NCBI GenBank assembly: GCA_038259265.1
Contig: JBBSOY010000001.1
Span: 562-64,561, forward strand
Length of the DNA stretch: 64,000 bases
Origin: Minisyncoccia bacterium
GTDB lineage: Bacteria > Patescibacteriota > Minisyncoccia > Phycocordibacterales > DATGWK01
Direction of reading: 5' to 3'
A program made the translations under genes and the position numbers. This document shows positions 1-43,645 of this stretch, one piece after another (the stretch's first letter is position 1; the number at the start of each line of letters is the position of its first letter). The notes below the pieces were generated by a model. It did no database searches and was not told the DNA's origin. It worked only from the letters and a program-made list of their open reading frames with translations.

Positions 1-445
1 CGATCATAAGACGTTCGCGCTTTGTGTATTTTGCGAGCTCGCCCTTTTCTTTCTGCATGGTGAGGTCTTCGAGCTTCATGACTCGTTTTCGAATCTGAGT
101 AAAGTTTGTGAGCGTACCGCCGATCCAGCGACCGTCAACAAACGGCATGTCGATGCTTTCGGCACCAGCCTTGACCGCTTTGCGAGCTTCGTCTTTACCC
201 CCCACAAAAAGCACTGACATACCTGCTGCTCCAAGGCCTTTTACGTATTCAAGGGCCTGGTCGAGGGCCGCGCTTGTTTTTTCAAGATCAAAAATTTCGA
301 TGCGGTTTTTTACGCCGAAAATGTAGGGTTTGGTGGAAGGGTGGCGGCGTGAACGTACGAAGGCAAAATGCGCACCGACTTTAAAAAGGTCGGCAACGCT
401 TTGTGAGTCATTTTTAACGTCTTTTGTTTTTGTAGTGGTTGTCAT
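1..445 (-). CDS. rpsB: 30S ribosomal protein S2 (partial; C-terminal part runs off the window start)
   Basis: Manual minus-strand translation from the ATG at 445..443 gives MTTTTKTKDV...VGAHFAFVRSRRHPSTKPYIFGVKNRIEIFDLEKT...LFVGGK...RWIGGTLTNF, typical S2 motifs. Absent from the ORF track because it has no stop in the window. Confidence 0.85.
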   Translation of the reverse strand, partial: MTTTTKTKDVKNDSQSVADLFKVGAHFAFVRSRRHPSTKPYIFGVKNRIEIFDLEKTSAALDQALEYVKGLGAAGMSVLFVGGKDEARKAVKAGAESIDMPFVDGRWIGGTLTNFTQIRKRVMKLEDLTMQKEKGELAKYTKRERLMI

Positions 446-3415: not shown

Positions 3416-4081
3416 TTATTTCTCTGCGGATTCCCCACCTTCTGCACCAGGTTCACCCTCTTCTTCTTTCTTACCCTTCTTTTCGACTTCGATTGCAGAG
3501 AGATCGACGGCGGTTTCAGTTTCTTCGACTTCTTCTTTTGGAACGGTTATGAGGGCAACGACTTCTTCGGCACCTTCGATGAGCGTAACACCTTCTGGCA
3601 TGTGTAGGTCTGCAGCAATAAGCTGGCTGTCGAGCGTCGAAAGAGAGGAAATGTCGACTTCGATTTTCTGAGGCAAGTCTTTTGGCATCGCTTCGATTTT
3701 TACATTATGCAAAACTTTGATGAGAATGCCACCGAGATCTTTGACGGCTATAGAAACCCCGATGAATTCGAGCGGCACGTCGATTTCGATTTTGTGACCT
3801 TTTTCGAACACATAAAAATCTGCATGGCGAGGCATTTCGGAGATTGGGTCGAGGTCCACGTCGTGAATGAGGGCTTCGATGTCTTCGCTGCCTTCGTTTT
3901 TGAGCGTCACAACCGCAGACTCACCGGCCTGTTTCCACACTTTCAAAAAATCAGCCATGGCCACAGAAACCGGAGTCGATTCCTGTTTTTTACCGTAAAA
4001 AACTGCGGGCATAAACCCGTCTTCACGCATATTTTCGAGACTTTCCCCGACAGCGCGAGGCTTTACCTGTAAATTAATCAT
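3416..4081 (-). CDS. rplY: 50S ribosomal protein L25 / general stress protein Ctc, with acidic C-terminal tail
   Basis: MINLQVKPR...FYGKKQESTPVSV... matches the L25/Ctc family. 221 aa with an EE/GE-rich tail. Confidence 0.85.
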   Translation of the reverse strand: MINLQVKPRAVGESLENMREDGFMPAVFYGKKQESTPVSVAMADFLKVWKQAGESAVVTLKNEGSEDIEALIHDVDLDPISEMPRHADFYVFEKGHKIEIDVPLEFIGVSIAVKDLGGILIKVLHNVKIEAMPKDLPQKIEVDISSLSTLDSQLIAADLHMPEGVTLIEGAEEVVALITVPKEEVEETETAVDLSAIEVEKKGKKEEEGEPGAEGGESAEK

Positions 4082-4812: not shown

Positions 4813-6450
4813 TTATGACTTCACGATGTGCTTTTCCATATAGTCGAGGCTGCCGTTTACTTTTTTGCCGGGATTAAAAATATTAGTTCGATCAAAAATA
4901 TTTTTCGTATCAACAAAAAGCGAGTAGATTTTGGAGCCAAACATTTTGGGCAGGTACGGTGTGCGAACAATGCCGTCATTATGTTCGGCGGTTATCGAGC
5001 CTTCGTATTTGAGGACGAGATCGTAGATTTTATCCGAAACAGTTCGGATCAACGCGCGATTACGCGCCTGCTTCATGTCCATAAGCGGAATAATGTGAAA
5101 GTTGCCGTTACCTGCATGACCGGCGATTGTATACAACAATTTGTGGTCATCAAGAATTGCGCGCATTTTCGGCAAAAATTCTGGCAAAAATTCGGGACGA
5201 ACAATGACATCGTCGATAAATGGAGCGGTGCGCATGCCGCGAACATGTTTTCGAAGCAAGTTGAAACTTTCGCGGCGAATCGTCCAATATTTTTCTGATT
5301 CAAATTCCGAGCTGATGATGCGCGTCTTATATTTAAAATGAGCGATGCGCTGCTGCAATGATTGCATCTGTTTCAAAATTTCAGGTTCGCTGTCCCCCGC
5401 AAATTCCACAAGCAAAATAAGTTTCGGAATGCCGCCCGTGAGAATCATGCCGACCTCTGGCAGAAAGCTCACCATGAGTCGCAAAAAATTCGTGGCTTTC
5501 ATAGTCGCCATCATTTCCGGCATGAAACGCATGGCCATTTTCATAGTGCTGTCGTCGTAGGACTCCAAACTTTCCGGTTTGAACGCCAAAATTTCATTTA
5601 CGAGCGTACCGAGATTTTTTAGATCGGGCATAAGCACCACAAACAACTTGGTGATTTTTTTAACTGGCACCAATTTGAGCGTCGCTTCGGTAACAATGCA
5701 CAGCGTTCCTTGCGAACCGACGATGAGTTTTGTGAGGTCGAAGGTTGTGCCGTCCCACACATTCCATAAATAGTAGCCGGCGGAATTTTTTGAAACTTTT
5801 GGCCGAGCAGCGACAATGTCGGCTTGATTTTCTGTAATAAGTTTAAAAACTTGTTTGTAGAGGGTGCCTTCAAAATCAACTTGGGCCATTTTTTCATCAA
5901 GCTCGGTTTTTGAAAGCGGCTTCACGACGTATTCGTTGCCGTCGGCAAACACAGCTTTGAGCTCAAGAACGTAATTTTCCATCTTGCCGTATTGCAAAGT
6001 TTTTTCGCCAGCAGAATTGTTGGCAACCATACCGCCAAGCGCACAGAGATTTTTTGAGGCAGTAAAGCAGGGCAAAATGGCATTAAGCTTCAGAGTTTCG
6101 ACTTCGAAGTCGCGGTAAAAAGTACCGGGCAGCACGACCGCCTGGTCTTTGGTGAGCGACTTGATGCCGTGCATGTACTTCATGAAATCAATAATGATGG
6201 ATTCGTTGAGCGAACCACCAGACATGCAGGTACCAGCCGAACGCGCCGTGAGCGAGAGCGTTTCGTCTTCGCCTTTTTTTTCATTTACAAATTTTACCAG
6301 AGCCTTGATGTCTGCCGCGTCTTTTGGAAAAACCACGAGCTTTGGACGAACCTCAAAAAGGCTCGCATCATGGCTGTATGTGTTGAGGGTTGCATCGTCC
6401 CCCATCACATCGCCTTTGAAAAACGCTTGGATTTCTTCCTTAAGTGTCAT
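4813..6450 (-). CDS. FAD-linked oxidase (FAD-binding PCMH type; GlcD / D-lactate dehydrogenase-like)
   Basis: 545 aa. N-terminal FAD_binding_4-like segment (TARSAGTCMSGGSL), C-terminal AEHNDGIVRTPYL resembling the oxidase C-terminal domain. Confidence 0.75.
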   Translation of the reverse strand: MTLKEEIQAFFKGDVMGDDATLNTYSHDASLFEVRPKLVVFPKDAADIKALVKFVNEKKGEDETLSLTARSAGTCMSGGSLNESIIIDFMKYMHGIKSLTKDQAVVLPGTFYRDFEVETLKLNAILPCFTASKNLCALGGMVANNSAGEKTLQYGKMENYVLELKAVFADGNEYVVKPLSKTELDEKMAQVDFEGTLYKQVFKLITENQADIVAARPKVSKNSAGYYLWNVWDGTTFDLTKLIVGSQGTLCIVTEATLKLVPVKKITKLFVVLMPDLKNLGTLVNEILAFKPESLESYDDSTMKMAMRFMPEMMATMKATNFLRLMVSFLPEVGMILTGGIPKLILLVEFAGDSEPEILKQMQSLQQRIAHFKYKTRIISSEFESEKYWTIRRESFNLLRKHVRGMRTAPFIDDVIVRPEFLPEFLPKMRAILDDHKLLYTIAGHAGNGNFHIIPLMDMKQARNRALIRTVSDKIYDLVLKYEGSITAEHNDGIVRTPYLPKMFGSKIYSLFVDTKNIFDRTNIFNPGKKVNGSLDYMEKHIVKS

Positions 6451-7322: not shown

Positions 7323-7382
7323 ATCAGTATTGTATCATGCGAAAAACAGCGCCAATTTTGTAATCCTCAGGAGATTTTTTGC

Positions 7383-7453: not shown

Positions 7454-7747
7454 TCAGGGATTTGCCGGCGGCTTCCGCGACGGCTCTGGCTGGTCATCGG
7501 GTAGTTGTGAAAGCGTCAACTCGGGTGGGGTAGGGTTTCCAGTGTACAGCCCAGAAGATTCTTTGGTTGGTGAGTTAATCACCGGTTCAGTGACAGTATG
7601 TTCCATTGGTACCTCATCCACAGGAAGGCACAGCGGTCTGCGGTATCTCCCCATGCGTTTTAAACGATCACAGCTGCTCACCGCAGCATGCCGAAGGCGA
7701 CGACTCGGAAACATCCTGACGTGCCATGGGACCACTATCTCTTTCAT
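7454..7747 (-). CDS. small basic / proline-rich hypothetical protein (97 aa)
   Basis: Strong SD (AAGGAGAG) 4-5 nt upstream of the ATG at 7747, terminator hairpin about 40 nt downstream, GC about 60%. No recognisable domain. Confidence 0.4.
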   Translation of the reverse strand: MKEIVVPWHVRMFPSRRLRHAAVSSCDRLKRMGRYRRPLCLPVDEVPMEHTVTEPVINSPTKESSGLYTGNPTPPELTLSQLPDDQPEPSRKPPANP

Positions 7748-7877
7748 AACTCTCCTTTTTTAAAAGGTGAAGGGTGACGTGTTCTGGTATTTCTCTGATT
7801 ACAATAAAACTTATTCGGAAAAATGTCAATCACTTATAGTTTTTCTGATCTTGAATAAAAATTGATATACTCTGTGA

Positions 7878-8909
7878 ATGAAACAAATAGATTTTCTCGC
7901 CATTGGCGATATTGTGACCGACGCATTTATTCGTTTGAAAGAAGCTTCCGTGCATTGCAACATAAACCACGATAGCTGTGAACTGAGCATGAAATTTGCC
8001 GACAAAATCCCTTTCGAATTTGTCGAGGTGGTGAGCGCTGTCGGCAACGGACCGAACGCTGCGGTTTCTGCCGCGCGTCTTGGGCTCACTTCAGCCAGCA
8101 TGACAAACATCGGCGACGACCAAAATGGCCGTGACTGCATTAGCGCAACCAAAAAAAATGGCGTCTCTACGAAATTTATTTCAAAACATCGCGGGTTCAA
8201 AACAAACTATCATTATGTTCTGTGGTTTGAAGACGAACGCACAATTCTCGTGAAGCACGAAGATTTTCCGTATGTCTTTAACGCGCCGCGCAAAAATCCG
8301 CGCTGGGTATATGTCACATCTCTCGGTGCAAACGCCCTCAACTATCAGATCAAGGTCGGTGAATGGCTCGAGGCAAATCCTGACATCAAATTCGCCTTCC
8401 AGCCCGGCACCTTTCAAATGAGTATCGGCCACGAAAAGCTGAGTGCCTTTTACAAACGTGCCGAAATCTTTTTCTGCAACGTCGAAGAAGCGAAACGAAT
8501 TTTGAAAATCGAACCAGCTGGCACGACCGAAAAAGCGGTCAAAGAATTAATTAGCGCCATGCACGCGCTTGGTCCGAAAGTCGTCGTCATTACAGATGGC
8601 CCGCGCGGCGCATATGCATCTGACGGCACAATTTCAAAGGAAACTGGTCAGCCGGAAGTTTGGTTCATGCCACCATATCCGGATCCAAAACCGCCACTTG
8701 AACGCACTGGCGCTGGCGATGCTTTTGCCTCGACTTTCACAGCCGCGTTGGCTCTTGGCAAAACAATCCCCGAAGCTCTCCGTTGGGCGCCGATTAACTC
8801 GATGTCCGTTGTTCAAAACATTGGGGCACAAAAGGGATTGTTGTCGCTCGAAAAGTTGCTCGAATTTTTGAAAAACGCACCGGCCGAATACGTGCCGAAA
8901 AAAATCTAG
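7878..8909 (+). CDS. PfkB-family carbohydrate kinase (ribokinase/fructokinase/phosphofructokinase-B-like)
   Basis: 343 aa. C-terminal TGAGDAF anion-hole motif and N-terminal GG dipeptide region. A TATACT -10 box lies 6 nt upstream of the ATG (possible leaderless). Confidence 0.8.
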   Translation: MKQIDFLAIGDIVTDAFIRLKEASVHCNINHDSCELSMKFADKIPFEFVEVVSAVGNGPNAAVSAARLGLTSASMTNIGDDQNGRDCISATKKNGVSTKFISKHRGFKTNYHYVLWFEDERTILVKHEDFPYVFNAPRKNPRWVYVTSLGANALNYQIKVGEWLEANPDIKFAFQPGTFQMSIGHEKLSAFYKRAEIFFCNVEEAKRILKIEPAGTTEKAVKELISAMHALGPKVVVITDGPRGAYASDGTISKETGQPEVWFMPPYPDPKPPLERTGAGDAFASTFTAALALGKTIPEALRWAPINSMSVVQNIGAQKGLLSLEKLLEFLKNAPAEYVPKKI

Positions 8910-8998: not shown

Positions 8999-9235
8999 CG
9001 TCCAACAAACAATTACAAAAAAACAAAAAAAAACAAAAAAACGAACTATCGGGCAACACGGTGCAAGTGTTATAGAACCTCCCTTCTTCTTTGCACCAAT
9101 GACCCTAAATTGATCTTTTTTAAGTATACCAGCTTATTAAATAATGTCAAGGAAAACAGGATGAAAAGAAATAATTGGGTTGAAATCACAACAAAAACTC
9201 TTATTTCTGGCGCTTTTTGAGAATTTGAAGAGAAT

Positions 9236-10219
9236 TTACTTTCGAGCGATAACTTTTTTCACAGCATTAACGATAGAGTCAGTGTCCATGCCGTAGTGTT
9301 CGAGGAGTTCGTCGGTTTTGCCGGACTGGCCGAAATGATCATCGACGCCGATAAATTCAATTGGCACTGGTTGATGTTTTGCGAGACATTCCGCAATTGC
9401 ACTGCCCATGCCGCCACGAATCTGATGTTCTTCGACAGTCACGATCGCGCCGGCTTTTTTTGCTTGCGTAACAAGCGCCTCTTCATCGAGCGGTTTGATG
9501 GTCGTGAGATTTAAAACGTTTACCTGGATTCCTTCAGCTTCCAAATTTCGAGCGGCAACGAGGGCCTTGTGCGTGAGTGCGCCCGTAGAAATAATTGTTG
9601 CCTGAGGATTTTCTGTTTCCCAAAAAATCTGCGCTTTACCTATTTCAAAAGGTGTTTCTGCCGTTGTCATAACCGGTGTTTTTTCTCGAGCAAGACGAAT
9701 GTAAACCGGCGTATCGGTTTTTGCCGCAGCGATCGTCGCCTTTTTTGCTTCGACGGAATCGCACGGAGAAATGACAACCATGCGCGGAATGACCCGAGTG
9801 ATGGCCATGTCTTCGATGGCCTGATGCGTGCCGCCGTCTGGACCGACAGAAATGCCCGCGTGACTGCCCGCAATTTTCACCGGCTGGTTGTTGTAGCAAA
9901 TGGTCGTGCGGATCTGTTCCCAATTTCGGCCCGGGCTAAACATGGCGTATGAGGTAATGAAAGGAATCTTGCCCATCGCTGCCATGCCGGACGCAGTCGA
10001 AGCCAGATTTTGTTCAGCAACTCCTATCTGCACAAAACGTTCCGGAAATTTTTTCGCAAATAAAAGAGTCTGAGTGGATTCAGTGAGATCGGCACAAAGC
10101 GCCACGACATTTTCGTCGGCTTCCCCCGCCGCGAGCAAGCCTTCACCATAGCCTTTTCGAATTGGCACTTGCTCGACATCGGTATCGAAAACTTTTTGAT
10201 TTAAATTTGAATTAAGCAT
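9236..10219 (-). CDS. tkt: transketolase, C-terminal subunit (pyrimidine-binding + C-terminal domains)
   Basis: 327 aa. GSHAGISVGPDGGTHQAIEDMA... matches the Pyr and C-terminal domains of split transketolase. Confidence 0.88.
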   Translation of the reverse strand: MLNSNLNQKVFDTDVEQVPIRKGYGEGLLAAGEADENVVALCADLTESTQTLLFAKKFPERFVQIGVAEQNLASTASGMAAMGKIPFITSYAMFSPGRNWEQIRTTICYNNQPVKIAGSHAGISVGPDGGTHQAIEDMAITRVIPRMVVISPCDSVEAKKATIAAAKTDTPVYIRLAREKTPVMTTAETPFEIGKAQIFWETENPQATIISTGALTHKALVAARNLEAEGIQVNVLNLTTIKPLDEEALVTQAKKAGAIVTVEEHQIRGGMGSAIAECLAKHQPVPIEFIGVDDHFGQSGKTDELLEHYGMDTDSIVNAVKKVIARK

Positions 10220-10275
10220 GTTGAAATATTTTTTCAGTCTTTAGATAGAAGATAGACCTACTGAAACTTAGAAAC

Positions 10276-11145
10276 TTATTCATGTTCGCTGCGGATTTTG
10301 CCGCCGAATGTTCGGAGGGCAGCAATAGCCATTTCGGCTTCTTCTTTGTTTGGCGGTTTGCCGTGCCATTCGAATTTGCGCTCGAATTCAGGCACACCTT
10401 TGCCGGGAATCGTTCGAGCGATGATGACCGACGGCTTTTCAAAAACTGCTTTGGCTTTGTTCACCGCATCGACGATCTCTTCCATGTTGTGCCCGTCGAT
10501 TTCCTGCACATGCCAATTCCAAGCGCGCCATTTGTCGGCGAGAGGTTCGAGCGGCATAATGTCTTCAGTAAAACCGTCGATCTGAATGTTGTTGCGGTCG
10601 ATGATTGCCACCAGGTTTCGAAGTCGATTTTTTCCTGCAAGCATAGCGGCTTCCCAGATCTGGCCGCAGTCATGTTCCCCGTCGCTCAACAATGCAAAAA
10701 TAGTTTTGTGACTTTCTACGCCATTATCAATTCGGTCGGCCAGCGCCATACCAACTGCCTGCGACAAACCAGAACCGAGTGGCCCAGAACTTGTTTCAAG
10801 CGAGGTTAAAAATTCGCGGTGCGGATGCCCCTGCAAACGACTGCCGAATTTTCGAAGCGTCATTAATTCTTCCATTGGAAAATAGCCAGCGTGAGCCATG
10901 GTCGCATACAACACCGGACAAATGTGGCCGTTTGAAAGAACGACGCGGTCGCGGTCGGGCCAAGCTGGGAGCTTTGGATTGTGATTTAAAATATGGAAAA
11001 AGAGAGCCGTAAACACATCGGCCATACCAAGCGGCCCCGCCGTGTGACCCGAGCCAGCTTCGAGAAGCATAGTGATGATCGACTGGCGAATTTCATTCGC
11101 CTTGAGCTCGAGAGCTTTTATTTCTTTGTCAGTGATGTCAGGCAT
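10276..11145 (-). CDS. tkt: transketolase, N-terminal subunit (TPP-binding)
   Basis: 289 aa. SGHTAGPLGMAD, GDGEHDCGQIWEA and NLVAIIDRN TPP-binding motifs. Directly upstream of the C-terminal subunit. Confidence 0.88.
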   Translation of the reverse strand: MPDITDKEIKALELKANEIRQSIITMLLEAGSGHTAGPLGMADVFTALFFHILNHNPKLPAWPDRDRVVLSNGHICPVLYATMAHAGYFPMEELMTLRKFGSRLQGHPHREFLTSLETSSGPLGSGLSQAVGMALADRIDNGVESHKTIFALLSDGEHDCGQIWEAAMLAGKNRLRNLVAIIDRNNIQIDGFTEDIMPLEPLADKWRAWNWHVQEIDGHNMEEIVDAVNKAKAVFEKPSVIIARTIPGKGVPEFERKFEWHGKPPNKEEAEMAIAALRTFGGKIRSEHE

Positions 11146-11185
11146 TACTAGTTTTTGATGGAATAAGAACTTTTTAACAAAATTT

Positions 11186-11240
11186 GAACGAGATTTGAAC
11201 GAGATTTGAACGAGATTTGAACGAGATTTGAACGAGATTT
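11186..11240. repeat. perfect 11-bp tandem repeat (gaacgagattt) x5 in the rpe-tkt intergenic spacer
   Basis: Five exact head-to-tail copies at 11186-11240 followed by the partial acgaaac. On the transcribed minus strand it reads aaatctcgttc x5. Confidence 0.95.
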
Positions 11241-11970
11241 ACGAAACAAGATTGAAAAATTCATCGATGGCTTCCGGAATATTTTCACTTTCAAAAATTG
11301 CTGAACCGATAACGAGCCGATTGGCACCTGCTTCCACCAAGCGCGGTGCGGTCTCCATATTTACACTGCCATCGACACTAATTGTAACGTCTGGATGCGC
11401 AGCCCGCAAACTGGAAATCTTTTCCAACACACGTTCGTCGAATGGCTGACCCTGAAAACCAATTTTCTGAATGCCCATAAACTGCACAAAGTCGACAAGC
11501 TCCGCGACAATGAGCGGTTCCACAACTTCATTCGGCGTTTCAGGATTCAGGGCAATGCCGATTTCTGTATACAAAAACGAATCAATCGACGGCAAAGTAC
11601 TTTTTATTTCCTGTAAAATCGCTTTCGGCTCAGACATGGATTCAACGTGCACGATAATTCTTTTGGCGCCGGCCGCAATCCATTCAGGTACTGCCACGCG
11701 CGGGTTTGAAACCATCAGGTCGACTTCAAAATCGAGTTCTTCCCACAACGGAAAGCCGCCCTCTTCTTTCACAATTTGTGCAAAATCTGGATCGGCAATG
11801 CCACTTTTTTTCGTGTCATCGTTTTTCACATACGGCCACGAACGACTCGGCACAAAAACGCCGTCCATAACATCGATTTGCACATGCGAAACAAGACCCG
11901 ACACGAGTGAAAGATCTTCGTTTAAATCTTCAAAACTTTTTGGCATTATCGCCGGAATGATTTCGATCAT
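11239..11970 (-). CDS. rpe: ribulose-phosphate 3-epimerase
   Basis: 243 aa. HVQIDVMDGVFVP and VDGSVN motifs. Confidence 0.85.
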   Translation of the reverse strand: MIEIIPAIMPKSFEDLNEDLSLVSGLVSHVQIDVMDGVFVPSRSWPYVKNDDTKKSGIADPDFAQIVKEEGGFPLWEELDFEVDLMVSNPRVAVPEWIAAGAKRIIVHVESMSEPKAILQEIKSTLPSIDSFLYTEIGIALNPETPNEVVEPLIVAELVDFVQFMGIQKIGFQGQPFDERVLEKISSLRAAHPDVTISVDGSVNMETAPRLVEAGANRLVIGSAIFESENIPEAIDEFFNLVS

Positions 11971-11972
11971 AG

Positions 11973-12461
11973 CTACATTTTTATTTCGTCGATTTTTCGA
12001 AGGCGACGCACATGGTTTTCATTTTCACTAAACGGAATCGTGAGAAATGTTTTGACGGCTTCTTTGGCATCAGCGACGGAAATAAATCGCGCACCGAGCG
12101 ACAACACGTTTGCGTCGTTGTGTTCGCGAGCGGTTTTAACTTCGAGCGGAATGTGCTGGCCGGGCTCCACATGTTCTGGCCGATACTGCCCATTGAAAAC
12201 CACCGCACGCACATGTCGAAAACGATTGGCGACGATCGCTTCGCCCTGGCCCGAGCCACCAATGATGATTCCCTGCTTCACGCCGCCGCTTTCAGAAATT
12301 TCTCGCGCGAGCGGGATCATGGAATCTGGATAGTCGTCATCTGCGTTAAATTCATGGGCACCAAAATCCTTTACCTCGTAGCCCATATCGCGCAAAAATG
12401 GGATTAGTTCTTGTTTGAGTTCAAAGCCAGCGTGGTCCGCAGCGATCAGTATTGTTTGCAT
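11973..12461 (-). CDS. rpiB: ribose-5-phosphate isomerase B
   Basis: 162 aa. MQTILIAADHAGFELK...IIGGSGQGEAIVANR matches the RpiB/LacAB family. Confidence 0.85.
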   Translation of the reverse strand: MQTILIAADHAGFELKQELIPFLRDMGYEVKDFGAHEFNADDDYPDSMIPLAREISESGGVKQGIIIGGSGQGEAIVANRFRHVRAVVFNGQYRPEHVEPGQHIPLEVKTAREHNDANVLSLGARFISVADAKEAVKTFLTIPFSENENHVRRLRKIDEIKM

Positions 12462-12620
12462 AAAAATAGTATATCAAAAAATATATGGCCTGCGTTTGCG
12501 CATCGCGCGTTGACTTAAATTAATTTAAATGGTATTAAATAGTTAGAAAGGATTTGTATTCTGTGGCTTTTCCCAGGACTTTTCCCTGTTTTTCACCCCG
12601 TTCCTTGTAAAGGAGTTACT

Positions 12621-13709
12621 ATGAAGATTGCGAGGATTGTTGCGATGCTTTTGTTTGCGATCTTGATCCTGTCGTCTGTTCAACAGGTCAATGCCGGCGT
12701 CCAGTTTTCGGTCACCGACCTCGGCACCCTCGGCGGTATACGAATCAGGCCAACCGCGGTCAACAATAATGGCGAGGTCGTTGGGCACTCATCGACGACG
12801 ATCGACGGAAATGAGGGGCCCGACCAGGCTTTTTTCTGGTCGGCAGGTGTCATGACCGGGCTCAATTCCGCAGATACTTTGTCCTCGTGGGCAACCCACA
12901 TCAATGACAGCGGCGTCATTGTCGGCAGAGCATTCACGGCGGCGGGGTCGCGGGCATTCCGATACGACCATGCCGGCGACATGACCATGACGTATCTTCA
13001 TAATATCGGTTTCGAAGCCCTCACTGAAGCGACCGGCATCAACAATGCCGGGCAAATCACAGGCAATGGTCCCGGCGGCGCCTTCGTTTTTACGAGCGAA
13101 AGCAACTGGCACTACCTGCCGGCTGATGGGGTGCGCATGCATTCAGCACGCGGCATCAACAACATCGGCCAAGTCATCGGCTGGGGTGAGTCAAATGATT
13201 TCGCCCAACGAGCCGCGCTTTACAACGGTACGAATGTCATGGACATCGGGCCGTCGGACGGCACATCGAGTGACGCCTACGCTGTGAATGACCTCGGACA
13301 AGTAGCCGGCTGGCTCTACAACGACTCAAACGAGCAGCATGCTGCCATCTTTAGCAATGGCACGGCCCAAGACCTTGGCGCCATGGGTGGCAGTTCGAGC
13401 ACAGCGCTCGGTATCAACATCTTCGGCGACTGCGTTGGCCGGGCTGAATTTGGCCCAGACCCTTCGGCCTATCGCGCGTTCTACTTCGATGGCGACCACA
13501 TGGTCGACCTCAATTCCTTGATCGACCCCGCGCTCGGTTGGTCGCTTCTCGAAGCGACCAACCTCAACGACCTTGGCCAGATCGTCGGATATGGCGTCAA
13601 CGGTGCCGGTCAAGAACGTGCATTCTTGCTCACGCCCGTTCCCGCTCCGGGAACACTCGGCACCTTTGGCCTACTGGCACTCGCCATCAAGCGTCGCCGC
13701 GCCGCCTAA
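12621..13709 (+). CDS. secreted HAF-family repeat protein with PEP-CTERM-like C-terminal sorting signal
   Basis: Signal peptide, then at least 6 repeats of [IV]N[ND]xGQ[IV][IV]G with downstream (H/R)AF motifs. C-terminus TPVPAPGTLGTFGLLALAIKRRRAA (PAP - hydrophobic helix - RRR). GC about 60%, higher than neighbours. Confidence 0.6.
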   Translation: MKIARIVAMLLFAILILSSVQQVNAGVQFSVTDLGTLGGIRIRPTAVNNNGEVVGHSSTTIDGNEGPDQAFFWSAGVMTGLNSADTLSSWATHINDSGVIVGRAFTAAGSRAFRYDHAGDMTMTYLHNIGFEALTEATGINNAGQITGNGPGGAFVFTSESNWHYLPADGVRMHSARGINNIGQVIGWGESNDFAQRAALYNGTNVMDIGPSDGTSSDAYAVNDLGQVAGWLYNDSNEQHAAIFSNGTAQDLGAMGGSSSTALGINIFGDCVGRAEFGPDPSAYRAFYFDGDHMVDLNSLIDPALGWSLLEATNLNDLGQIVGYGVNGAGQERAFLLTPVPAPGTLGTFGLLALAIKRRRAA

Positions 13710-16179: not shown

Positions 16180-16367
16180 GGCGTGTCTGAATTAAATTTC
16201 TAAATGATTGTAATGGAGTAAGTATATCAGACACGAAAGACGCAAAAAATCATCACCTCATTTTTCATAATAAAAAACCGCCCCGAGGTGGAGCGGCTTT
16301 GATGGCAATACATACGCGAACACACGTCACACATGGTTGCTTGTGTCATATCGGCTTAGAGGGCGTC

Positions 16368-21825: not shown

Positions 21826-22152
21826 ATGGCGTTATGTTTCAAAAATTACCCAGTTTTTTATAAAACCCTCTTATTAAATTTCCCTTAATTTTTAATTACA
21901 TTGCAAAGTTCAATAATTGTACCGCACAAGAAAATTTTTAAGAATAAAAAAAGCCAAAAAAGAAACCCACAAAACATCAAAAAACCACTGTAAAGTGAAC
22001 GCTGCCATATGAGCCTTTAGATTGCTTACGAGTAGAGAAATTTTCGGTGGGAAATTTTTAAAATCAGGAATTTTTTAGCCAAAATTAAGCCAAAAATGGC
22101 ACGTAGGACCCGAGTTATACACAGCTTGAAGCCGTTTGTTTTAGAAGCTATC

Positions 22153-40262: not shown

Positions 40263-40931
40263 ATGCGCATACTGATAATTGAGGACAACGAAGAAATTCG
40301 CGAGCATTTAAAGATTGGCCTAGAGTCAGAAATGTTTTCCGTCGACACCGCCGAAGACGGCGAACGCGGTTCATACATTGCAAGAACAAACGACTACGAT
40401 CTCATACTCCTGGACAACAACCTCCCAAAGAAAAGTGGTATCGAAGTTTGCCGAGATATTAGAAAAGCTGGCAAAAGCATTCCAGTCATTTTGATTTCTG
40501 TCATCACCGACCCCGAAGAAAAGGCGAAGCTTCTGAGCGCCGGAGCGGATGACTACGTCGCCAAACCTTTTTCATTCAAAGAATTGTTGGCAAGAATCCG
40601 AGCCATACTGCGTCGACCACACGCTGTCATTCCTGAAAATCTGGTCATTGGCGATCTGGTTCTCAATTCAAAAACCCATGAAGTAAAGCGCGGCAAAAAT
40701 GACATCTACCTGACACGGAAAGAATATTCATTGCTCGAACTTCTCATTCAACACAGCGGCGAAGTAGTTTCTCGGGGAACGATTCTAGAACATGTATGGG
40801 ATCTCGATGGTAATCCATTTTCAAATACCATCGAAACACACGTTTTTAATTTAAGAAAAAAACTTGAAAATGGCAAAGATCGTCTGATCTGGAACGTACC
40901 TGGCCGTGGATACAAAATCGCTTCCCGCTAA
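40263..40931 (+). CDS. two-component response regulator, OmpR/PhoB family
   Basis: Receiver domain (DLILLDNNLP, phospho-accepting Asp) plus winged-helix DNA-binding C-terminus. Confidence 0.88.
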   Translation: MRILIIEDNEEIREHLKIGLESEMFSVDTAEDGERGSYIARTNDYDLILLDNNLPKKSGIEVCRDIRKAGKSIPVILISVITDPEEKAKLLSAGADDYVAKPFSFKELLARIRAILRRPHAVIPENLVIGDLVLNSKTHEVKRGKNDIYLTRKEYSLLELLIQHSGEVVSRGTILEHVWDLDGNPFSNTIETHVFNLRKKLENGKDRLIWNVPGRGYKIASR

Positions 40932-41742
40932 CACATTCATCCTGATCCAAGCCACCACCATGAAATCAGAACTTCGTCTGCCAAGTGTCCATAAAATCGG
41001 AGAGATTGCCGAACTCGCCGAGCTTGGCAAAAAAGCCCGAATTGTCTTTCATGATCTTTCTAACCACATTACAGCCTTAACGCTTTCCATGGATCAACTG
41101 CAGGAAAATTTACACCGCGACAGCGAACGGTTACTTCAATATTCAAAAAAATCAGAACAAACCCGGTTGCACATGGAACATGTTTCCTCTCTTCTCAAAT
41201 CACATATCACTCGTATAGCCGACGCGCCGTTCGACCCAAATACTGAAATAAAAAACATCCTCGGGACATTCGCTGCCACAGCAGCACAGAAAAGCATTCA
41301 ATGTTCGTTTCAAGCAAAAACCAAAACACAGCTTATTGGTAGCAGAATTGCCTTTATTCACTGCATCACAAATTTAATTTCAAATGCGCTCGAATCATTC
41401 GAGGATTACTCAAGTCCGTCTGAACGCCGAATCAACGTATCGACGATGGCTCAAGCCAAAACTCGCCACTTTTTGGTTTTTGTCAGCGACACCGGGAGTG
41501 GCATTCGGAAAGAATTGCTCAAAAAGATTTTTGAAAACAATTTTACAACCAAAGCAAATGGTCACGGCATCGGCTTATATGCCACCAAACAATATGTGGA
41601 AGAAAGTTTCAGGGGCACCATCACGGTCGAAAGCTCGAAACTAGGCTCGACGTTTTTGATCACTATTCCGGTATCTCGTTCAAAAACCATTCTCCTAAAA
41701 AAGACTGCAGTCGCAGGAAGTTATATAAACTCTACAGACTGA
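40906..41742 (+). CDS. histidine kinase lacking TM/sensor domain (DHp + HATPase_c only)
   Basis: H-box FHDLSNHITAL, N/G boxes (NALESF, DTGSGI, GHGIGL). 278 aa with no hydrophobic segment. Overlaps the response regulator gene by 26 nt. Confidence 0.8.
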   Translation: MDTKSLPANTFILIQATTMKSELRLPSVHKIGEIAELAELGKKARIVFHDLSNHITALTLSMDQLQENLHRDSERLLQYSKKSEQTRLHMEHVSSLLKSHITRIADAPFDPNTEIKNILGTFAATAAQKSIQCSFQAKTKTQLIGSRIAFIHCITNLISNALESFEDYSSPSERRINVSTMAQAKTRHFLVFVSDTGSGIRKELLKKIFENNFTTKANGHGIGLYATKQYVEESFRGTITVESSKLGSTFLITIPVSRSKTILLKKTAVAGSYINSTD

Positions 41743-43364: not shown

Positions 43365-43610
43365 TCACAACCCTTCCATGATGCCCATACTGTCAGTGTC
43401 CATAAGCCCCGCACCAACATATGAATTCAGAAAGGATGGAATGGCGATTAAAAGGCCGATGAGTGGCAGCACGAATGCAATGACGCTGACCCAAAAAATG
43501 ATCTGAAAATAGCGCCTCGTTTTTTCTACAGACGCATGAATGGCGTCGATTTTGACCTCTAACTCTTGCAATTTATTTTGAATACTTGGTTCCATTTCTT
43601 TAGTATACAC
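43365..43610 (-). CDS. small membrane protein (81 aa)
   Basis: Coiled-coil N-terminus then TM. Third member of the ytx-like triad. Confidence 0.4.
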   Translation of the reverse strand: MYTKEMEPSIQNKLQELEVKIDAIHASVEKTRRYFQIIFWVSVIAFVLPLIGLLIAIPSFLNSYVGAGLMDTDSMGIMEGL

Positions 43611-43645
43611 CCGACAAATAACTCTAGTAATTTATCCGTGAAAAA

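Follow-up and report, generated by a model that had tools for sequence, protein, structure and literature searches.

Bacterial intergenic VNTRs are known as MLVA loci and as the intercistronic MIRU-VNTRs of Mycobacterium tuberculosis; coupling mini-ORFs are carried by the MIRUs, which measure 40-100 bp. In Neisseria and Haemophilus, phase-variable simple-sequence contingency loci hold repeats with units of 1-8 nt, placed within ORFs or between -35 and -10, and OmpR/PhoB-family boxes are direct repeats phased at 10-11 bp that lie at promoters. In plasmid R1, the parC centromere/operator has its 11-bp iterons in two sets of five, and one ParR dimer binds each iteron (PMC2241845). For rut sites, the first-step criteria of RhoTermPredict are 78 nt with a C/G ratio above 1, a C every 11-13 nt, no structure and no ribosomes (PMC6407284).

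In the window, by which we mean the whole 64-kb stretch of DNA that was analysed, a tandem array of period 11 lies between rpe and tktN (Table 1). TRF gave it 5.4 copies, 100% matches and a score of 118, the maximum in the window, and an exact-match search of the window recovered five occurrences of GAACGAGATTT on the plus strand (11186-11240). The five exact 11-bp copies reported in the initial annotation were thus confirmed, as was the 93-nt length that it gave for the rpe-tkt spacer. The junction has the transcribed-strand sequence ...GTT TCG TAA (ATCTCGTTCAA)x5 ATTTTGTTAAA AAGTTCTTATTCCATCAAAAACTAGTA ATG, so that the start of the array falls within the rpe stop codon: in the minus-strand register TAA is followed by (ATCTCGTTCAA)x5, periodicity begins right after the T of the stop (11239-11241), and the two A's of the stop are part of the array. 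The repeat takes up 55 of the 93 nt of the spacer, and 38 nt separate the array from the tktN start. By direct reading, ATG, GTG and TTG are all absent from the periodic sequence, and none of its sense frames contains a stop codon. A run of 44 consecutive periodic matches cannot be attained by chance.

Tandem repeats can mis-assemble, and this one comes from a single lineage and a single sample. However, an independent assembly of SRR24807092 (Logan, k=31) reaches into the array from either side, with matching sequence: contig L001 ends inside the array after an identical rpe, and contig L085 begins inside it and runs on into tktN-tktC, with identical flanks. These contigs break within the array, as expected of a tandem repeat that exceeds k=31, and do not reveal the copy number. 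The array, at 59 nt, would also fit within a read of usual length and within the usual final k. It is not an assembly artefact, and an origin in faulty assembly or sequencing is scarcely credible.

Table 1. Features of the rpe-tktN junction and of the arrays and leaders compared with it. Positions are those of the window unless a related locus (L number) is named.
Feature	Position	Strand	Basis
tktC, transketolase pyrimidine-binding and C-terminal half, 327 aa	9236..10219	-	Pfam
tktN, transketolase N-terminal half, 289 aa	10276..11145	-	Pfam
rpe-tktN intercistronic spacer, 93 nt	11146..11238	-	sequence
Ten-codon mini-ORF UUG...UAG (UAGUAAUG), ending 2 nt before the tktN AUG	11148..11180	-	sequence only
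Degenerate sixth unit ATTTTGTTAAA, 8/11 matches, in register, tkt-proximal side	11173..11183	-	sequence
Perfect 11-bp tandem array, 5.4 copies	11182..11240	-	sequence and TRF
rpe, ribulose-phosphate 3-epimerase, 243 aa	11239..11970	-	Pfam
rpiB, first gene of the unit, 162 aa	11973..12461	-	Pfam
Extended -10-like box TGATATACT, ending 6 nt before the rpiB ATG	12468..12476	-	sequence reading
11-bp array, eight phased units, between the DUF192 stop and the gap promoter	L003:114-201		sequence
L003-type array, seven units	L087:~637-713; L088:~47-123		sequence
Degenerate 11-bp arrays, CTTTATCA core	L080:3319-3403; L080:7209-7283		sequence
Conserved gap promoter/leader	16180-16240	-	sequence comparison
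Conserved gap promoter/leader	L003:247-287; L086:1283-1333; L089-L091 ~5955-6000		sequence comparison

The initial annotation had placed the repeat within an apparent rpiB-rpe-tktN-tktC operon, which was borne out by the junctions and by the extended -10-like box before rpiB. From their arrangement, the four genes most plausibly form a single transcription unit in which tktN is an internal cistron, because only 2 nt separate the rpiB stop from the rpe start, tktN has neither a Shine-Dalgarno (SD) sequence nor a -10 box of its own, and the spacer (11146-11238) contains no SD, promoter-like or terminator-like site. The box before rpiB is likely the operon promoter and would yield a leaderless mRNA. 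An SD-like 4-mer is found in only 5 of the 70 ORFs of the window, and the genome is SD-poor. TAnnnT boxes of the (extended) -10 type lie 5-8 nt before the ATG of many genes, including rpiB (e.g., 12462-12486, 7323-7347 and 43596-43620), which suggests that leaderless mRNAs are widespread. Unlike many leaderless genes of this genome, tktN has no TAnnnT box 5-8 nt upstream of its ATG. An intrinsic terminator or attenuator, which would need a GC-rich hairpin and a U-tract after it, was rejected, as 11146-11240 contains no terminator-like site.

Rpe ends in a C-terminus (...EFFNLVS*) as long as that of the sister species, and the start of TktN (MPDITDKE) is conserved among relatives. Pfam Ribul_P_3_epim matches residues 77-226 of Rpe only (model positions 56-198); the N-terminal ~75 residues are divergent, yet they are conserved over their full length in Paceibacteria relatives (50-75% identity). 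The mini-ORF that ends before tktN shares its frame with an ORF at 11148-11327. It could relay re-initiating ribosomes and is not conserved in the sister-species locus L002. Beyond tktC, in the convergent gap between this gene and a pfkB-family kinase gene, we noted an A-rich low-complexity repeat (AACAAACAAAAACAAAAA, 2.4 copies, 9004-9046).

Like contingency loci, the array is a slippage-prone repeat of a kind able to change expression in steps. A phase-variation contingency repeat was nevertheless rejected, as the array follows the rpe stop, ends 38 nt short of the tktN start and has no flanking promoter hexamers. Since it is outside ORFs and promoters, changes in unit number cannot switch a gene on or off.

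We compared the junction with those of the nearest genomes, which are uncultured Patescibacteria (Paceibacteria, Zambryskibacteria-like). Synteny of rpe and tktN was kept in 70 of the fetched loci; L054, in which the rpe stop was mis-called, was excluded from the spacer count. The spacer had a median of 5 nt, measuring 0 nt or less in 31 loci, 1-60 nt in 27, 61-150 nt in 2 and more in 10. In the 10 longest, other genes appear to be inserted, as confirmed only for L080. Neither the array nor its unit was present in ~70 other Paceibacteria rpe-tkt junctions. In the sister species (L002 and ENA contig L086), whose TktN and Rpe are 92% and 74-75% identical to those of the window, the coding flanks align, and the 48-nt spacer contains no repeat and is unalignable. 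The window spacer, reduced to one unit, would measure 49 nt. By these comparisons, the array is lineage-specific. Exact-protein look-ups with Rpe, TktN and TktC and a homologue search yielded no second strain of the window lineage, which is represented by one NCBI contig and one Logan run. The closest non-identical Rpe in the homologue search had 74% identity, and a scan of JGI metagenomes returned distant relatives only (33-55% identity).

Occurrences of the 11-mer elsewhere in the genome, which the initial annotation had contemplated, were sought in the 64-kb window, which holds no further copy of the unit beyond chance; none was found in 91 loci or in IMG/VR viral contigs. GAACGAG matched 11 times outside the array in the window, compared to 8.3 matches expected by chance in total.

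Two other rpe-tkt spacers carry short duplications. In L006, a long gene-free spacer of 77 nt holds a 17 nt x2 tandem duplication (1630-1664), and the spacer of L012 holds one of ~13 nt x2 (~3965-3995). Judged from sequences of this kind, the rpe-tkt spacer seems to lengthen repeatedly through local duplication.

Our preferred explanation, to which we assign a probability of about 0.6, is that the array is a young, slippage-generated, lineage-specific minisatellite (VNTR) without a dedicated function. The array belongs to an already known kind of element, the intergenic VNTR or minisatellite. Like VNTRs and MIRUs, it is arranged head-to-tail, is non-coding and lies between genes of one operon. 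As in VNTRs, decay affects the older copies and the newest are perfect (5.4 copies at 100% plus one decayed unit), and the element is absent from or different in sister species (here 48 nt without a repeat in L002 and L086, and ~70 junctions without the unit). Unlike MIRUs, it has a unit of only 11 nt and a host in the CPR/Patescibacteria, and whole-unit change is known here from a sibling array.

A mechanism that accommodates these features is that an 11-nt stretch just past the rpe stop was duplicated and then expanded by replication slippage. This would have produced five identical units and one older, decayed unit and enlarged the intercistronic spacer from ~49 nt to 93 nt. The array would be transcribed in the rpiB-rpe-tktN-tktC mRNA as a single strand. 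Because the genome is SD-poor, and because the normal arrangement of rpe and tkt is an overlap or a gap of a few nt, the additional 44 nt could loosen the termination-reinitiation coupling of tktN to rpe. The expansion would also expose a ribosome-free, unstructured stretch richer in C than in G, a rut-like Rho-loading site if the organism has Rho, and the tkt:rpe ratio would then change as units are gained or lost. Any consequence of the array is likely only quantitative.

We scanned 722 kb, made up of the window and related loci, for arrays with periods of 5 to 33. Of the five strongest non-coding arrays, one had period 7 and four had period 11: the window array, one array in L003 and two in L080. 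The TktN of L003 is 87% identical to that of the window, and its array begins with a unit that encodes the last DUF192 residues and the TGA stop. Two copies of TGAACGACCTC come first, and the later units are increasingly decayed. All eight units share T, C and G at unit positions 1, 5 and 6, the first six have a T[GA]AACG core, and the filler varies. VNTRs change by whole units through slippage, and this was seen here: two independent contigs, Logan L087 and ENA L088, whose GAPDH shares 99% identity with that of L003, have exactly one perfect unit fewer, with identical flanks. At 89% GAPDH identity (L089), ~3 degenerate units with broken cores were left, and at 84% there was no L003-type array. 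Together, these differences show that L003-type arrays gain or lose whole units and then decay, which is how a VNTR behaves, with no purifying selection on the core. Copy-number hypervariability is therefore, by analogy, the best supported of the earlier interpretations; it is carried by the sibling array (eight units in L003, seven in L087 and L088), the window locus being known from one contig and one run.

The window and L003 units match at 8 of 11 positions, with TGAACGA in common (P ~0.03 per pair and ~0.08 corrected for three comparisons, by our own estimate), and the two arrays have opposite orientations relative to their flanking genes. A common function of the two is not established. 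In L080, a PemK/MazF-like toxin gene follows each array (genes at 3425-3988 and 7616-7963), and one array starts 6 nt past the rpe stop. From this placement, both arrays likely serve as operators of toxin-antitoxin cassettes, of which one is inserted between rpe and tkt. As they are probably operators, one-turn arrays can be functional in this group. The dominance of period 11, which is one helical turn, together with the TGAACG core shared by one of the arrays, hints at selection for phasing and not pure neutrality.

These arrays bear on a second explanation, raised already in the initial annotation, in which the repeat forms phased binding sites. Five head-to-tail TTGAACG-containing sites, one per turn, would be occupied cooperatively by a protein that recognises direct repeats and acts as a roadblock or as an activator of tkt. 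The candidates are a response regulator of the OmpR/PhoB type or, as at R1 parC, a protein of the ribbon-helix-helix class. The spacing fits, in that 11 bp is one helical turn and period 11 dominates the non-coding arrays; the eight phased units of L003, with invariant T..CG, lie upstream of the gap promoter, and the L080 arrays with their common CTTTATCA core precede PemK-like genes. The window encodes an OmpR/PhoB-family regulator (Response_reg and Trans_reg_C; gene at 40263-40931) with an adjacent histidine kinase (40263-41742), and OmpR/PhoB boxes are one-turn direct repeats as well. However, the 64-kb window contains no second site or phased motif pair, the region upstream of the regulator gene lacks the motif, and no promoter follows the array on either strand. 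The array is missing from the sister species, the L003 core is lost in L089, the 8/11 match between window and L003 units has a corrected P of ~0.08 and their orientations are opposite. Perfect identity among units points to recent expansion, not to maintained sites. We consider phased binding sites quite unlikely, and the regulator-site reading found little support.

Specific candidates of this type were rejected. An OmpR/PhoB site array would adjoin a promoter-like site, and here there is none, nor is there another phased pair in 64 kb; conservation is also lacking, and five identical units would be atypical of such boxes. A link between the array and the encoded OmpR/PhoB regulator failed on the same grounds, the absence of an upstream motif, of a second phased site and of an adjoining promoter. 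R1 parC resembles the window array in its five direct head-to-tail repeats of exactly 11 bp (PMC2241845). Unlike parC, the window array is a single set with no promoter between sets, is chromosomal, has rpe and tktN of a metabolic operon as its flanks, and comes with no parM or parR; the sequences are unrelated. We likewise discarded oriC/DUE, CRISPR and iteron-replicon assignments, as the contiguous units lack spacers, sit in an operon and have no dnaA, rep or cas genes in their vicinity. The OmpR/PhoB pair is among the few regulators seen in the window.

A broader proposal combines the window and L003 arrays. In it, 11-bp T[GA]AACG arrays are evolvable cis-elements at central-carbon genes (tkt in the window, gap in L003) of the Zambryskibacteria-like branch, born by slippage and kept because they are read by a direct-repeat-binding protein or by Rho. 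We find this very doubtful. If true, copy number would tune the dosage of glycolysis and pentose-phosphate genes in organisms with very few regulators.

We also considered whether intrinsically curved, UP-like DNA might drive an internal promoter for tkt. The A/T triplets of the array are phased at 11 bp, and its predicted curvature is above average, at the 94th percentile (36 degrees, with approximate wedge parameters). Yet at least 12 separate peaks in the window (>100 bp apart) are much stronger, at 55-65 degrees; the 38 nt between the array and the ATG contain no -35/-10 pair, and tktN has no TAnnnT box 5-8 nt before its ATG. Strong intrinsic curvature was rejected, with the array only at the 94th percentile, and an internal promoter of this kind is highly improbable. 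The top predicted curvature in the window belongs to the DUF192/ribonucleotide reductase intergenic region (22040-22110, minus strand), where A/T tracts are phased at ~11 bp and a near-duplicate TTTTGGCTTAA/TTTTGGCTAAA occurs.

We examined the junction at the RNA level. The 201-nt junction RNA folded at -15.2 vs -25.5 kcal/mol (z = +2.97), more weakly than 200 of 200 dinucleotide shuffles, and Rfam gave 0 hits at E<=1 for 9000-13000. A known structured RNA (riboswitch, leader or sRNA) was rejected on these results. When folding was modelled for 0-10 repeat units, the unpaired fraction of the array was ~75-80% at five or more copies and 0.38-0.72 at 1-4 copies. The cost of opening -15 to +15 around the tktN AUG was 4.2-4.3 kcal/mol at 1-10 copies, compared to 5.2 kcal/mol at 0. 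In this model the array RNA is an inert single-stranded extension and not a structural switch. The RNA-level repeated motif proposed in the initial annotation was not supported by the fold, by Rfam or by access to the tkt start, which was equal at 1-10 copies, and the RNA-motif reading as a whole found little support.

An unstructured array could still be a selected RNA element, either a Rho-loading site that lowers tkt relative to rpe through intra-operon polarity or an S1-type landing pad for tktN, with copy number as a rheostat. In the S1-type version, an unstructured pyrimidine/A-rich pad would sustain initiation at the SD-less tktN, which also lacks a promoter of its own. The case for Rho is compositional: the 78-nt spacer window has a C:G of 17:6 (2.8), at the 99.9th percentile of minus-strand windows, and a C exactly every 11 nt. 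The untranslated 93-nt spacer agrees with the rut definition in composition, spacing and predicted structure (PMC6407284), and a one-unit spacer (49 nt) would be too short for Rho, the five-unit spacer (93 nt) sufficient. The array thus resembles rut sites in being a ribosome-free, unstructured stretch of ~78 nt with C>G and a C every 11-13 nt; rut sites are not tandem repeats. Against a selected element, the array is conserved in no relative, the C/G ratio is equalled or exceeded in nine other minus-strand windows, and the modelled access to the tkt start is independent of copy number. There is no rho gene in the 64-kb window, and tblastn with E. coli Rho (an approximate query) gave no match in 0.73 Mb of window and loci, an uninformative negative. 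We found no literature on Rho in this clade. We regard a selected RNA element as unlikely.

The value of the array as a minisatellite is mainly practical, as a marker: this perfect 11-bp VNTR of a CPR genome breaks short-k assemblies and could serve for strain typing of the window lineage. If its copy number does tune tkt, it would be a case of repeat-based expression tuning in a setting of minimal regulators, almost no SD sequences and normally tight rpe-tkt coupling. The recurrence of one-turn arrays in related genomes would be of more interest than the single window locus.

A further sequence, CTTAYTCCAT, is common to the tkt and gap leaders, with two exact hits. Allowing one mismatch, 6 were found and 6.8 expected, and none occurred in relatives; it was rejected as a shared motif, and we treat the sharing as a coincidence. 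The tktN leader holds CTTATTCCAT (11158-11167), which is similar to the gap leader sequence, and this motif is not enriched. The gap promoter and 5' leader (TGCTATACTTAnTCCATTACC...) are themselves conserved across species, whereas the surrounding intergenic DNA is not, and the leader may be a conserved element of the GAPDH mRNA.
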